Shown here piece after piece: positions 22,995 to 44,246 of a stretch of DNA of 64,000 nt. Numbering within the stretch: the first letter of the stretch is position 1; each line of letters opens with the position of its first letter. The stretch lies in the sequence record HE978309; one strand, 5' to 3'. Position numbers and translations under genes: made by a program. The stretch is from Enterobacteria phage GEC-3S. The notes under the pieces were generated by a model. It was not told the origin of the DNA. It saw nothing but the letters and a program-made list of their open reading frames with translations, and did no database searches.

Positions 22995-23034
22995 TGTTTG
23001 ATTCTCCTAAGTGGTATCTCGTTTCGATGGGTGT

Positions 23035-23065
23035 ATTATGCTATAGGCGTGATCTGGTGTCAATT
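23035..23065 (-). promoter_or_regulatory. Sigma70-like early promoter
   Basis: TTGACA - 18 nt - CATAAT on minus strand. Confidence 0.5.
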
Positions 23066-23766: not shown

Positions 23767-23812
23767 AATTTGATTCTCCTAGTTAGAAAGTGTATCTCGT
23801 TTCGATGGGGAT

Positions 23813-23842
23813 ATTATGCTATATCCCCGATCCGGTGTCAAC
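23813..23842 (-). promoter_or_regulatory. Sigma70-like early promoter, palindrome spanning -10
   Basis: TTGACA ... GGGGATAT-AGCATA-ATATCCCC containing CATAAT. Confidence 0.55.
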
Positions 23843-35207: not shown

Positions 35208-35245
35208 TTGATTCTCCTTAAAGTGTATTTCGTTTCGATGGGGGT

Positions 35246-35275
35246 ATATTAATACCCCCGTTATTCAGTGTCAAC
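35246..35275 (-). promoter_or_regulatory. Sigma70-like early promoter with GGGGGTAT...ATACCCCC palindrome
   Basis: TTGACA - 17 nt - TAATAT. Confidence 0.5.
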
Positions 35276-40435: not shown

Positions 40436-41659
40436 TTATACTGCCATTTGAGCGGTGATCGCTGGATGGCTTTGATAGTTGTGAATTTTAAAATCTTTCG
40501 GAGTCTTTGTCAATACCTCATCTAAAGATTTAAATTCCGGCAACTCAATTGTTGGTTTATCAAACGGAACACGGCTTAACTGTTCCATAACTTGATCAAA
40601 ATGGTTTTTGTAAATGTGGCAATCCCCACACTGATAAACCAGTTCGCCAACTTCTAACCCGCAAATCTTCGCGATGATATGCGTTAACAGTGCATAGCTC
40701 GCTACGTTGAACGGATTCCCTAAAAAGAGATCATTCGAACGCATGAAAAATAAACAACTCAATTTGTTGTCGTTGGAAACATAAAACTGTACCATCGGAT
40801 GACATACACCTAACACAGCATTATGCGTTTCCTGTACGTTCCATGAATCAATGATAATACGACGACTATACGGATCATTCTTGATCATGTCAATAACTTT
40901 TTGTAACTGGTCTTCCCAAATCTTCGGGCGATAGACATATTCTTCATCGTCTTTAGTGCTTGATGTGTCTACGTCCATACTAACAAACATCGTGGTATCC
41001 GGTGCTATAATATCCCCACCCAGATAATCACTATCAAGCAGATAACCGAAATAACCATCATCTACCCATTCCTGGAATCCCCACAAGCAATATGCATCAT
41101 TAACAAAATTAGATTGAGTCTTCCAGTGGTCTGCTACCAGAATATAATCAAACTCTTCATAACGCATACCACGCCAGATAGCACATAAACGGTCTTCTGT
41201 GTCATTGGTTGGCGTAAAGTCTTCTACCCACGGGTGCTTAAATGTATGTGTATATTTGCTCTTAACGCGCTTAATTTTGATTTCACCATGTGGATGAATC
41301 GGTTTGCGTCGCCACGCCATACCATACATATTGCCGACATTATAACCATTGAATCGCAAGGGATTCTTTTCTTTCATATCAAGACAGTTGCCGCGCCAAA
41401 TATCAAAGGCTTCCTCGTCAAACTTGCCGCGTGTAATTTCCTGTAAGCGACGGCGGTCAAGTGATCCCTCCATAAACCATAGCAATTCGCCAATCACAGA
41501 GGCTGTAGCCATCTTTTTAGTGGTCAGTAATGGGAAACCCTTGCTTAAATCAATTCGCATCTCTGCGCCGAATTTAGAGAGCGTACCTACCCCCGTGCGG
41601 TCTTCACGAGGACAGCCATTATCAAGAACATCACGCAACAGTTTCAAATATTCTTTCAT
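40436..41659 (-). CDS. td: Thymidylate synthase with large internal insertion
   Basis: ThyA motifs (REDRTGVGT; FPLLTTKK; ELLWF; DPYSRRIII; CHPMVQFYV; FMRSNDLFLGNPFNVASYALL) in one 407-aa ORF; about 120 extra residues mid-protein. Confidence 0.9.
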   Translation of the reverse strand: MKEYLKLLRDVLDNGCPREDRTGVGTLSKFGAEMRIDLSKGFPLLTTKKMATASVIGELLWFMEGSLDRRRLQEITRGKFDEEAFDIWRGNCLDMKEKNPLRFNGYNVGNMYGMAWRRKPIHPHGEIKIKRVKSKYTHTFKHPWVEDFTPTNDTEDRLCAIWRGMRYEEFDYILVADHWKTQSNFVNDAYCLWGFQEWVDDGYFGYLLDSDYLGGDIIAPDTTMFVSMDVDTSSTKDDEEYVYRPKIWEDQLQKVIDMIKNDPYSRRIIIDSWNVQETHNAVLGVCHPMVQFYVSNDNKLSCLFFMRSNDLFLGNPFNVASYALLTHIIAKICGLEVGELVYQCGDCHIYKNHFDQVMEQLSRVPFDKPTIELPEFKSLDEVLTKTPKDFKIHNYQSHPAITAQMAV

Positions 41660-42578: not shown

Positions 42579-42908
42579 TCAAATCAGTTTGAAATAGTTT
42601 TCGTTTACATTTTCTTCTGTGATTGCTGTCTTAAATTCTTGACCGTTATCCGGTGTGATGAAATAACGGTCAGAATAATCACGAAAACGTTTTAAGTGAG
42701 ATACCCCAACATTAACACCATTTTCCCAAAAACGAAAGGTAATCATTTTTGGTTCATATCGATAGTCGCTGGTTAACACAGTACCATCACCGCGACGGGC
42801 TTCATAAACCGTAATACATTCACGATTAGCGGCTTTAAGGCATTCTTCAATAGTGCCGCATGAGATAATACTTACTTTTTCATCTACGATTTGTTCTACA
42901 GTCCACAT
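42579..42908 (-). CDS. Hypothetical protein (109 aa)
   Basis: Internal ATG at 42908 with GAGAGGA RBS downstream of own promoter. Confidence 0.5.
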   Translation of the reverse strand: MWTVEQIVDEKVSIISCGTIEECLKAANRECITVYEARRGDGTVLTSDYRYEPKMITFRFWENGVNVGVSHLKRFRDYSDRYFITPDNGQEFKTAITEENVNENYFKLI

Positions 42909-42939
42909 AATATAATCCTCTCTTTGTTTCGATATGTGC

Positions 42940-42968
42940 ATTATACACTATTGCGTTACGCTGTCAAC
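42940..42968 (-). promoter_or_regulatory. Sigma70-like early promoter
   Basis: TTGACA - 16 nt - TATAAT. Confidence 0.5.
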
Positions 42969-44134
42969 TCTTTTTCAAAAGATTTTACGATATACATGAT
43001 GGTGCTCAATTCGGACGGCGCTACTGTCTCTGTGTAGCCATCCGGCATATCTTCTTTCGAGATATAGGAAGTTTTACCTTTCATTGCTTCCTTGATTTTG
43101 TTCTCTAATTCTAAGATCTTTTGACCGTCTTGTAAAGTCAATTCATAAAAGATCTCATGATCGAACTTTGAAACACGAGATTGGTTTCTCATGCGCTCAT
43201 GTGTTTCTTTGTTTGTTATTCCAAATTTCACGCCAACAAAGGAATCATTGTTGGTTAATTTCTGTATATAAAGAGTTCCTGTCTTTAATGCCTGATAACC
43301 ATGCTTAGAACACAACGGGCAGCGTGTTCCGCGATTAACAAAATTATCAATAGTTACATCCCATTCATGGTTACGTTCGCATGTCAGAAGTATTCTTGTT
43401 AATGCACCTTTCCACTTTCCTGAAATCCCAATAAATTTTAGTCTGTTGGTTTCGCATATTTTTTCAATTTGTTTTAATCGGTCACTTTTTGTTATTGGTG
43501 CTGTTCCGCTACATTTGCGACACCGACGACCTAGTTTGAACTTATCATAACTTTGTTCGTAAATGTGATTATTAGGACACTCAAATTTAAGTTTAGTTTT
43601 TGTTCCTCTCCATTCCCCAATTATACCCAAAAATTTATAATCTCCTTTATTTTCATTTATATAAGATAAGGAATCTTCTTTATCATGCATCTTGCCCCCG
43701 TTACATAAAGGACATCTTGTTTTTTGATGAATGAAATCTGTATATGTTGGTTGGTATGTGTGTCCGTTTGTACAGTTCATAATGAGTCTTGTTCTGCTAT
43801 TTTTATACTCCCCACCAACAAAACCAACAAATACATCGTTTGTTTCTTGTTTTATTCTTTCTATCACATTGTTTGGGTTTAATCTTTGAGAATCAACCAC
43901 ACATTTCTTACACGAAACTTTTTTCCTGATATTTGCTAGAGTTGATGTGTATTCATGCTTGTTATTACATAATATAAGAGCTTTTGTTTTGAGACCAGAC
44001 CATTCTCCAACAAACCCCATGAAAGAATAACCAACTTCCAAACATGATTTTTTTACAACATTTTCCCAATAGAAGGGAGTTTTCGTGTTTCCTTTTATTT
44101 CTATACGAATCTCATGTGCTTGACGTACTAACAT
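42956..44134 (-). CDS. Four tandem Cys/His zinc-ribbon repeats plus C-terminal T5orf172/GIY-YIG-like domain
   Basis: Four ~45-aa repeats each with C..H...CxxC, then LYIQKL...FVGVKFGIT...R; ATG at 44134 with GGAGGAT RBS. Confidence 0.6.
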   Translation of the reverse strand: MLVRQAHEIRIEIKGNTKTPFYWENVVKKSCLEVGYSFMGFVGEWSGLKTKALILCNNKHEYTSTLANIRKKVSCKKCVVDSQRLNPNNVIERIKQETNDVFVGFVGGEYKNSRTRLIMNCTNGHTYQPTYTDFIHQKTRCPLCNGGKMHDKEDSLSYINENKGDYKFLGIIGEWRGTKTKLKFECPNNHIYEQSYDKFKLGRRCRKCSGTAPITKSDRLKQIEKICETNRLKFIGISGKWKGALTRILLTCERNHEWDVTIDNFVNRGTRCPLCSKHGYQALKTGTLYIQKLTNNDSFVGVKFGITNKETHERMRNQSRVSKFDHEIFYELTLQDGQKILELENKIKEAMKGKTSYISKEDMPDGYTETVAPSELSTIMYIVKSFEKELTA

Positions 44135-44164
44135 ATTTTTATCCTCCGTTGTTTCGATGATTGT

Positions 44165-44193
44165 ATTATACATTACCACATCAGCATGTCAAT
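44165..44193 (-). promoter_or_regulatory. Sigma70-like early promoter
   Basis: TTGACA - 16 nt - TATAAT. Confidence 0.5.
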
Positions 44194-44217
44194 ACATTTT
44201 CATAAAATTTTAGGCAA

Positions 44218-44246
44218 TAAAAAAGCCTTCCCGAAGGAAGGCTTTA
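44218..44246 (-). terminator. Rho-independent terminator after gene 32
   Basis: AAAAAA-GCCTTCC-CGAA-GGAAGGC on plus strand. Confidence 0.6.

Follow-up and report, generated by a model that had tools for sequence, protein, structure and literature searches.

The 64,000-nucleotide window analysed here (record HE978309, Enterobacteria phage GEC-3S) belongs to a Krischvirus, an RB49-like member of the Straboviridae. Beside its gene 32 lies a minus-strand gene for a 392-amino-acid (aa) protein, which raises the question of what this protein does and whether it drives its own spread among related phages. It is probably a free-standing, modular, site-specific homing endonuclease, in which a CapR zinc-finger array is joined to a T5orf172-like GIY-YIG domain. 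The order of genes on the coding strand is 59 - 32 - endonuclease gene - 109-aa open reading frame (ORF) - frd - td - nrdA, as the initial annotation, made from the sequence alone, had described in placing the gene between the frd cluster and gene 32. The surrounding 3.4 kb is 97-98% identical to phages FL15, G37-3, AV108 and GoldenSnicker and 96.8% identical to Ec_Makalu_001. The GoldenSnicker annotation contains the identical gene model, labelled 'endonuclease', and PHROG 681 'endonuclease' matches the protein at 1.5e-100; a scan against NCBIfam returned a sole match, DrmB, at chance level. A consensus early promoter of its own and a strong ribosome-binding site precede the gene, with the Shine-Dalgarno (SD) sequence GGAGGA 7 nt upstream of the ATG. 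A GTG at 44179, from which the ORF-finder frame runs (42956-44179), was rejected as the start because it lies upstream of the promoter -10 box. No paralogue was found within the 64-kb window. In Phi1, FL38, Delraymugoa, G37-3 and others, tblastn with the protein gives 2-4 separate matching places per genome, and several paralogous insertions of the family therefore appear to exist elsewhere in those phages.

The N-terminal part of the protein consists of zinc-finger repeats. The motif C-x3-H-x(14-15)-C-x2-C is present exactly four times (aa 56-78, 121-144, 186-208 and 252-275), while at least one such motif occurs in 117 of 20,000 shuffled versions of the protein (0.6%). Pfam CapR (PF21817) matches in four stretches, at 100.6 bits (E=5.4e-29; gathering threshold 24.2 bits), and DUF4379, a 'probable treble clef zinc finger', at 44.3 bits (2e-11; cut-off 24.5). 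All four repeats carry four zinc ligands in a Cys3His pattern. The four C-x3-H...C-x2-C repeats of the initial annotation are thus confirmed and their zinc-ribbon or treble-clef nature is supported, but the repeat length of about 45 aa that it gave is not borne out: the period is 65-66 aa, made up of a helix, three strands and the zinc knuckle, and the array spans aa ~20-280. A repeat hidden Markov model (HMM), built from the four units and refined by iteration, recovered 365 units in 169 related proteins, each with 1-6 repeats detected. The complete Cys/(His or Cys)/Cys/Cys ligand set is kept in 315 of the 362 unique family repeats; the three Cys columns are more than 97% Cys, and the His stands at C+3 or C+4, giving C-x2-H or C-x3-H. 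The family scaffold reads F-x-G-F-x-G-E-[YW]-K-G-x-x-T-K-...-C-x2-3-H-...-F-x-x-G-x-G-C-P-x-C. High-entropy positions are scattered through it, and a simple two-residue 'code' is not evident among the family repeats. The full-length AlphaFold model has a mean predicted local distance difference test score (pLDDT) of 92 and a predicted template-modelling score (pTM) of 0.41; pLDDT drops at aa 80-90, 140-150 and 270-280. Because local pLDDT is high, pTM low and the dips fall at linkers, the model depicts the four zinc modules as independently folded beads on flexible linkers. Cys-to-Ser mutants of CapR lose DNA binding (PMC8096241), and the array is predicted to bind zinc and DNA.

The C-terminal domain is the best-conserved part of the protein. 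Eight of its residues (Table 1) are invariant in 111 sampled relatives, and F304 and T368 are conserved at 90% or more. An alignment-based AlphaFold2 model of aa 276-392 (pLDDT 95) has a beta-beta-alpha-beta-alpha...alpha topology and contains the three-stranded sheet, flanking helices and beta-beta-alpha-beta-alpha core of the GIY-YIG superfamily fold. Compared by Foldseek with viral models (BFVD), it gave 94 matches at E<=1e-3, with names including 'GIY-YIG domain-containing', 'Homing endonuclease' and 'Bacteriophage T5 Orf172 DNA-binding domain-containing'. On the full protein, the Pfam models T5orf172, MUG113 and GIY-YIG gave no match at E<=1; the domain alone scored 13.8 bits with MUG113 (E=0.09, below threshold) and did not match T5orf172. 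With gathering thresholds of 20 bits for T5orf172 (PF10544) and 22.3 bits for MUG113 (PF13455), the domain lies outside strict membership of either family. Among close relatives, 17 of 27 match MUG113 and 13 of 27 match T5orf172 at E<=10 (best E ~2e-5); at E<=1e-3, MUG113 matches 10 of the 111 sampled relatives and T5orf172 matches 6. The domain alone also matches gene T5.141 of phage T5 (39.6% identity, 3e-14) and genes of Vibrio phages Helene and 184E37.1, which were used as examples of T5orf172 homing endonuclease genes (HEGs; PMC10448857). BLASTP to Helene VPBG_00042 gives 29% identity over 251 aa (6e-20), with an identical ...PDGYTETV motif. The matching genes of Helene and 184E37.1 themselves miss the T5orf172 and MUG113 gathering scores (19.8 and 16 bits for 184E37.1), and T5.141 has no T5orf172 match at E<=0.01. 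Homology of the domain to the T5orf172/MUG113/GIY-YIG clan is well supported. The reading of the C-terminus as T5orf172/GIY-YIG-like therefore holds for its motif (LYIQKL...VKFGIT...R, with Y289, K303, G305 and R314 invariant) and fails at the Pfam thresholds.

At the sequence level, no bridge from the domain to canonical GIY-YIG enzymes was obtained. A profile search against all Protein Data Bank (PDB) sequences gave no match at E<=10, Foldseek of the domain model against the PDB gave nothing significant (SLX1 ranked ninth, probability 0.21), and an hhalign comparison between the domain alignment and the catalytic domain of I-TevI, whose sequence was checked against 1LN0/1MK0, gave a probability of 0.2%. 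A word-indexed profile search returned mainly short unannotated fragments. Residues can be paired with those of I-TevI from secondary-structure order and local similarity. On this basis Y289 would be the GIY Tyr, K-F-G would stand for YIG, R314 for R27 and E344-N for E75-N76, and G366-Y-T-E would correspond to N87-G-Y-N90. The order and spacing of Y289, R314, E344 and E369 fit the GIY-YIG Tyr, the helix-1 Arg and the catalytic Glu.

The same domain belongs to a large family. An exhaustive profile search with it found 1,725 or more cluster representatives; of the 150 that were listed, nearly all have the domain at the C-terminus, after an N-terminal region whose length varies, and CapR domains precede it in 101 of the 111 sampled relatives. 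This whole nuclease subfamily escapes the curated T5orf172 and MUG113 profiles, and HMM-based censuses of phage HEGs therefore undercount it.

Inspected directly in four related phages, the slot between gene 32 and the frd-proximal 109-aa ORF has variable contents. It is empty in PHB13, filled by an unrelated 109-aa ORF in MIZ6 (L003 2565-2894), occupied in RB49 by a 485-aa relative (RB49p240, labelled 'endonuclease' in RefSeq), and occupied in GoldenSnicker by the allele of the window; the presence/absence polymorphism that the initial annotation had named as a check is therefore found. The MIZ6 ORF has no Pfam or PHROG match, and the idea that it is a remnant of the endonuclease was rejected, as it shows no similarity to it. 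Divergent alleles fill the slot in RB49, Phi1 and others. The flanking DNA is ~93-97% identical among the compared phages and adjoins the essential gene 32, so that presence and absence alternate at one site beside a conserved gene, as expected of a free-standing HEG. Among the 40 best-matching records, where slot contents were inferred from span lengths and annotations, six have the window allele (97.7-99.5% protein identity), about twenty have other family alleles, about eleven have the MIZ6-type ORF, and two are empty. Divergent alleles that keep this nuclease type (P0002-P0036) are 262-541 aa long and are 74-95% identical to the window protein in the nuclease domain and 27-42% in the finger region. 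Homology between RB49 DNA and the window extends as far as 43270 and resumes at 44132, and exactly the finger array has been exchanged; the last 315 nt of the gene and the upstream leader are backbone-like in this comparison. Coverage figures of 67-76%, against a 66% baseline from MIZ6-type records without the HEG, indicate that the shared 3' tract ranges from a few tens to ~340 nt among alleles.

The slot is also bounded by repeated expression signals. Each copy of a 71-nt direct repeat comprises an AT-rich tract, TTGACA-16-TATAAT, a leader and an SD. Both cassette promoters, like that of gene 32, have a score of 12/12. In RB49 and phi1, promoter-early stem-loop elements (PeSLs) mediate excision, insertion and replacement of ORFs, with mini-circles demonstrated (Arbiol et al., 2010, PMC2839356). 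The upstream unit is complete in its parts (hairpin plus 12/12 promoter). The downstream unit is a promoter/SD repeat without a stem-loop, and so falls short of a full PeSL; it extends over the final 12 codons of the endonuclease. In T4 HEGs, promoters for neighbouring genes are likewise embedded and are thought to favour HEG retention (PMC2988022).

Table 1. Coordinates of the endonuclease gene, its domains and its expression signals in the 64,000-nt window
Feature	Position	Strand	Details
Complete coding sequence, 4 CapR-type zinc fingers + C-terminal GIY-YIG-like (T5orf172-like) nuclease domain	42956..44134	-	392 aa, ATG start at 44134, stop TAA
CapR repeat 1	43880..44077	-	aa ~20-85; ligands C56, H60, C75, C78
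CapR repeat 2	43685..43879	-	aa ~86-150; ligands C121, H125, C141, C144
CapR repeat 3	43487..43684	-	aa ~151-216; ligands C186, H190, C205, C208
CapR repeat 4	43295..43486	-	aa ~217-280; ligands C252, H256, C272, C275; ~10 residues to nuclease domain
GIY-YIG-like nuclease domain	42959..43294	-	aa 281-392; invariant Y289, K303, G305, R314, E344, G366, E369, T370
Allele-specific module (whole zinc-finger array, aa 1-288)	43271..44131	-	no nucleotide homology to RB49 allele; both sides homologous
Gene 32 terminator hairpin, stem-loop part of upstream PeSL cassette	44222..44245	-	directly precedes endonuclease promoter
Perfect sigma-70-type early promoter of endonuclease gene	44165..44192	-	TTGACA-16-TATAAT, then SD GGAGGA 44142-44147
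Perfect sigma-70-type promoter of downstream 109-aa ORF	42940..42967	-	-35 TTGACA = Leu-Thr codons of endonuclease ...ELTA*
Right copy, 71-nt direct repeat	44149..44219		PHB13 single cassette aligns to both copies
Left copy, 71-nt direct repeat (promoter/SD cassette)	42924..42994		70% identity to right copy

The last ~40 residues of the protein (...DGYTETVAPSELSTIMYIVKSFEKELTA; window 42956-42994) are virtually identical in 14 of 18 closer family members, the window protein included. Members that share this end have zinc-finger arrays only ~30-40% identical to that of the window. The DNA of the ...DGYTETVAPSELSTIMYIVKSFEKELTA end also serves the downstream promoter as UP-element and -35 region, and it forms one of the arms of the direct repeat. 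Because of this dual role, its conservation may come from dual coding or recombinational homogenisation, rather than from protein function alone.

As a homing endonuclease, the protein would act as a monomer, its finger array reading a long asymmetric DNA site in a co-infecting Krischvirus without the window allele. The nuclease domain, on its tether of ~10 residues, would cut close to the place bound by finger 4, with R314, E344 and the G-x-T-E369 loop taking the roles of R27, E75 and the N87-G-Y-N90 loop of I-TevI. Recombinational repair off the endonuclease-carrying genome would then copy the gene and flanking markers into the cut genome, and insertion or excision could use the homology between the duplicated promoter cassettes. 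Deletion of the 3' end of the endonuclease would be penalised by the downstream gene's promoter embedded there, and alleles would change target by exchanging the finger array joined to an unchanging nuclease module.

Several points weigh against such a homing cycle. The canonical second Tyr of the GIY-YIG motif is not conserved, the motif being K303-F304-G305, and the helix-1 His/Tyr is not conserved either, with Gln318 at +4 after the Arg; the latter residue is also lost in the active T5orf172 nuclease Odn (PMC8263062). A comparison of 1.7 kb of flanks in five genomes gave 6 allele-specific single-nucleotide differences, scattered and without a cluster, and no cleavage site or target was identified. 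T4 HEGs use middle or late promoters (PMC2988022), unlike the early-type promoter found here. In MIZ6-type phages, an unrelated ORF fills the slot instead. Finally, the slot polymorphism does not require endonuclease activity. The initial proposal of a free-standing homing endonuclease gains support from presence/absence and allelic variation among phages ~93-97% identical around the slot; by itself this variation is no proof of homing, because PeSL recombination can also produce it.

That recombination is the core of the main competing account, in which the gene is passive cargo of a PeSL cassette: it would be gained, lost or replaced at the slot by recombination between ~70-nt cassettes, and the nuclease, possibly active in some other role, would not drive its own spread. 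The 71-nt repeats that bracket the gene, the empty site with one chimeric cassette, the terminator hairpin followed by a 12/12 promoter and the unrelated 109-aa ORF in the same slot of MIZ6-type phages all speak for it, as do the PeSL excision and mini-circles shown experimentally in RB49 and phi1 (PMC2839356). However, the downstream copy lacks the stem-loop of a full PeSL, and passive carriage leaves unexplained the upkeep of a nuclease domain with eight invariant columns, the fact that most slot occupants in the listed Krischviruses are alleles of one family, and the position of the family near essential genes in other phages (PMC10448857). We regard passive carriage as the sole mechanism as unlikely. 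The two mechanisms are also compatible, because a double-strand break would stimulate exactly this cassette recombination.

If the nuclease drives something other than its own copying, one candidate is competition or defence, with the array directed at a rival genome (phage, satellite or host), as in ICP1 Odn, a T5orf172 nuclease with a swapped DNA-binding domain that serves anti-satellite immunity (PMC8263062). The consensus early promoter, unlike those of T4 HEGs, implies expression immediately after infection, and finger arrays that diversify fast on a constant nuclease are what an arms race predicts. Yet no PADLOC defence-system model matched the protein, no satellite or target is known, and an allelic series at a fixed slot with an empty variant is what populations with a homing element classically show; in the T4 Seg enzymes, moreover, marker exclusion and homing are the same activity (PMC2988022). 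This role is improbable. Still less credible, indeed very improbable, is a decayed or domesticated homing endonuclease that binds DNA only, for example to regulate transcription as the satellite protein CapR does, or is without any function. CapR is a domesticated relative with DNA binding only (PMC8096241), two canonical GIY-YIG positions are substituted here, and the Pfam nuclease models are not reached. The ORF, however, is intact in six phages at the protein identities given above, and no part of the protein is better conserved than the nuclease domain, whose eight residues are invariant in 111 diverse relatives, where a dead domain would drift. The same substitutions are found family-wide in T5orf172-type domains, at least one of which is active (Odn, PMC8263062).

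The homing-endonuclease reading has precedents in other phages. CapR-T5orf172 proteins of ICP1 were proposed to be HEGs (Netter et al., 2021, PMC8096241), and in T5orf172 HEGs zinc fingers occur as repeated arrays and domains are swapped (Barth et al., 2023, PMC10448857). Like the window protein, ICP1 gp165, gp174, gp121, gp130 and gp53 and the Helene/184E37 HEGs have an N-terminal CapR/DUF723/DUF4379-type finger array and a C-terminal T5orf172-like nuclease; they are also free-standing near essential genes and vary by repeat number and by domain swapping between alleles. The differences are the host lineage (a T4-like Krischvirus), the ligand pattern (C-x3-H...C-x2-C, Cys3His, against CxxC...CxC, Cys4, in CapR; PMC8096241), a nuclease domain below Pfam thresholds, and embedding in a PeSL-type promoter-cassette system. 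T4 was stated to have no T5orf172 genes (PMC10448857), and no RB49-group phage is listed in the supplements of that survey; its HMM screen (E<=1e-3) would probably have missed the window gene because the nuclease domain lies below the Pfam thresholds. Odn (ICP1 Gp88, origin-directed) cleaves DNA in vitro, and E180A abolishes cleavage (PMC8263062). By its published description, Odn shares with the window protein a C-terminal T5orf172-type nuclease behind an exchangeable N-terminal DNA-binding domain that sets specificity, and it likewise conserves the catalytic Arg and Glu and lacks the helix-1 His/Tyr; it differs in having a RepA_N domain instead of zinc fingers and in serving anti-satellite immunity instead of homing. 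T5.141 and RB49p240 have the same two-part architecture as the window protein. T5.141 has 2 matched CapR stretches and the related C-terminal domain; RB49p240, found in the identical slot, has the 3' 315 nt in common with the window gene at the DNA level. Lengths differ (T5.141, 250 aa; RB49p240, 485 aa; window protein, 392 aa with 4 repeats), and the finger arrays of the window protein and RB49p240 have no nucleotide homology. The T5 annotation of 2004 already notes a similarity of T5.141 to 'RB49ORF239C', by its numbering probably the RB49 slot gene.

Two kinds of HEG are catalogued for T4: GIY-YIG (Seg, I-TevI/II) and HNH (Mob, I-TevIII). The gene for SegG, an enzyme that cuts gene 32, is located between genes 32 and 59 (PMC2988022). 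It is thus free-standing beside gene 32, like the window gene, and T4 HEGs also carry an embedded promoter of a neighbour; the proposal that segG occupies the same slot was rejected, since it is on the other side of gene 32. The Seg enzymes (SegG) and I-TevI share the 'beads on a string' design, including a zinc finger, with the window protein. They differ in having the nuclease N-terminal rather than C-terminal and in combining a zinc finger with a minor-groove helix and a helix-turn-helix, in place of a 4-unit zinc-finger array. I-TevI also has a long linker, against ~10 aa in the window protein, and no detectable sequence similarity to the window domain. The resemblance to RB49/phi1 PeSLs lies in the stem-loop terminator, AT-rich tract, consensus early promoter and SD before the gene, and in the second promoter/SD cassette after it, of which the empty-site phage has one. 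PeSLs of RB49 and phi1 have been described mainly around ORFans in hyperplastic regions, whereas the cargo here is a nuclease in a conserved replication-gene block, and the downstream copy, without a stem-loop, overlaps the coding sequence of its cargo. A term search of PMC2839356 found no mention of the gene 32-frd slot.

Much of this class is already known: it was described in 2021-2023 for ICP1, T5-like, Vibrio and other phages, including its repeat arrays and domain swapping (PMC8096241, PMC10448857), and the Krischvirus genes are labelled 'endonuclease' in RefSeq and PHROGs. Modestly new are its occurrence as an allelic series in a T4-like lineage outside the survey (PMC10448857), a nuclease subfamily invisible to curated Pfam models, and the coupling to PeSL-type cassettes with an embedded downstream promoter. 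RB49-type T-even phages join the lineages that carry CapR-array/T5orf172-like endonucleases, and current understanding is not overturned. The locus is a natural experiment, in which dozens of near-isogenic genomes have the site empty, filled with unrelated cargo, or filled with the same nuclease bearing different finger arrays; it is therefore a convenient system for how arrays read DNA and for the interplay of homing and PeSL shuffling. A bolder and improbable extension is that the slot is a natural 'zinc-finger nuclease' platform, with a constant GIY-YIG-like cleavage module locked in place by the embedded promoter and 65-aa CapR fingers recombined to retarget it. Each finger would be a separable specificity block, and allele turnover would reflect an arms race of co-infecting phages. 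Were this true, and finger specificity modular and predictable, the protein would offer a compact, monomeric, programmable nuclease scaffold and represent a third, unrecognised HEG class in T4-like phages.

Some observations concern the neighbourhood and the rest of the window. The downstream ORF, listed as 42579-42941 (minus strand, 120 aa from the ATG at 42941), is probably 109 aa long in its true form, starting at 42908, because the ATG at 42941 lies inside the -10 box of the promoter of the ORF itself. The 109-aa form aligns with phrog_16287 over its full length (1-109 of 109) and agrees with the RB49 annotation; GoldenSnicker annotates the longer form. Three more early-promoter and leader cassettes are found on the minus strand (23019-23063, 23797-23841 and 35230-35274), of the form TTGACA-N17-[T/C]ATAAT-like...TCGAAACGA, with G/C-rich palindromic spacers and a chance expectation of ~0.01. 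They are probably PeSL-type and mark other shuffling-prone slots. The fixed-spacer pattern that found them missed both cassettes flanking the endonuclease gene, which have a 16-nt spacer.

The td gene for thymidylate synthase (40436-41659, minus strand) encodes 407 aa, ~120-130 aa more than usual. Its Pfam match is split into two stretches, of which the best spans aa 250-407 (profile 110-266), and an in-frame insertion of ~130 aa at roughly aa 115-245 is therefore indicated, to which no Pfam family matched. The td products of RB49 and MIZ6 are similarly long, at 410 aa. Inside td there is also a mosaic patch (40600-40900). Compared with each of four Krischviruses, 40600-40799 differs at 24-41 positions per 100 nt, and against RB49, MIZ6 and PHB13 the patch reaches to 40899; the rest of the compared region has mostly fewer than 10 mismatches per 100 nt. 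The patch looks like the result of recombination in the conserved C-terminal core of td.

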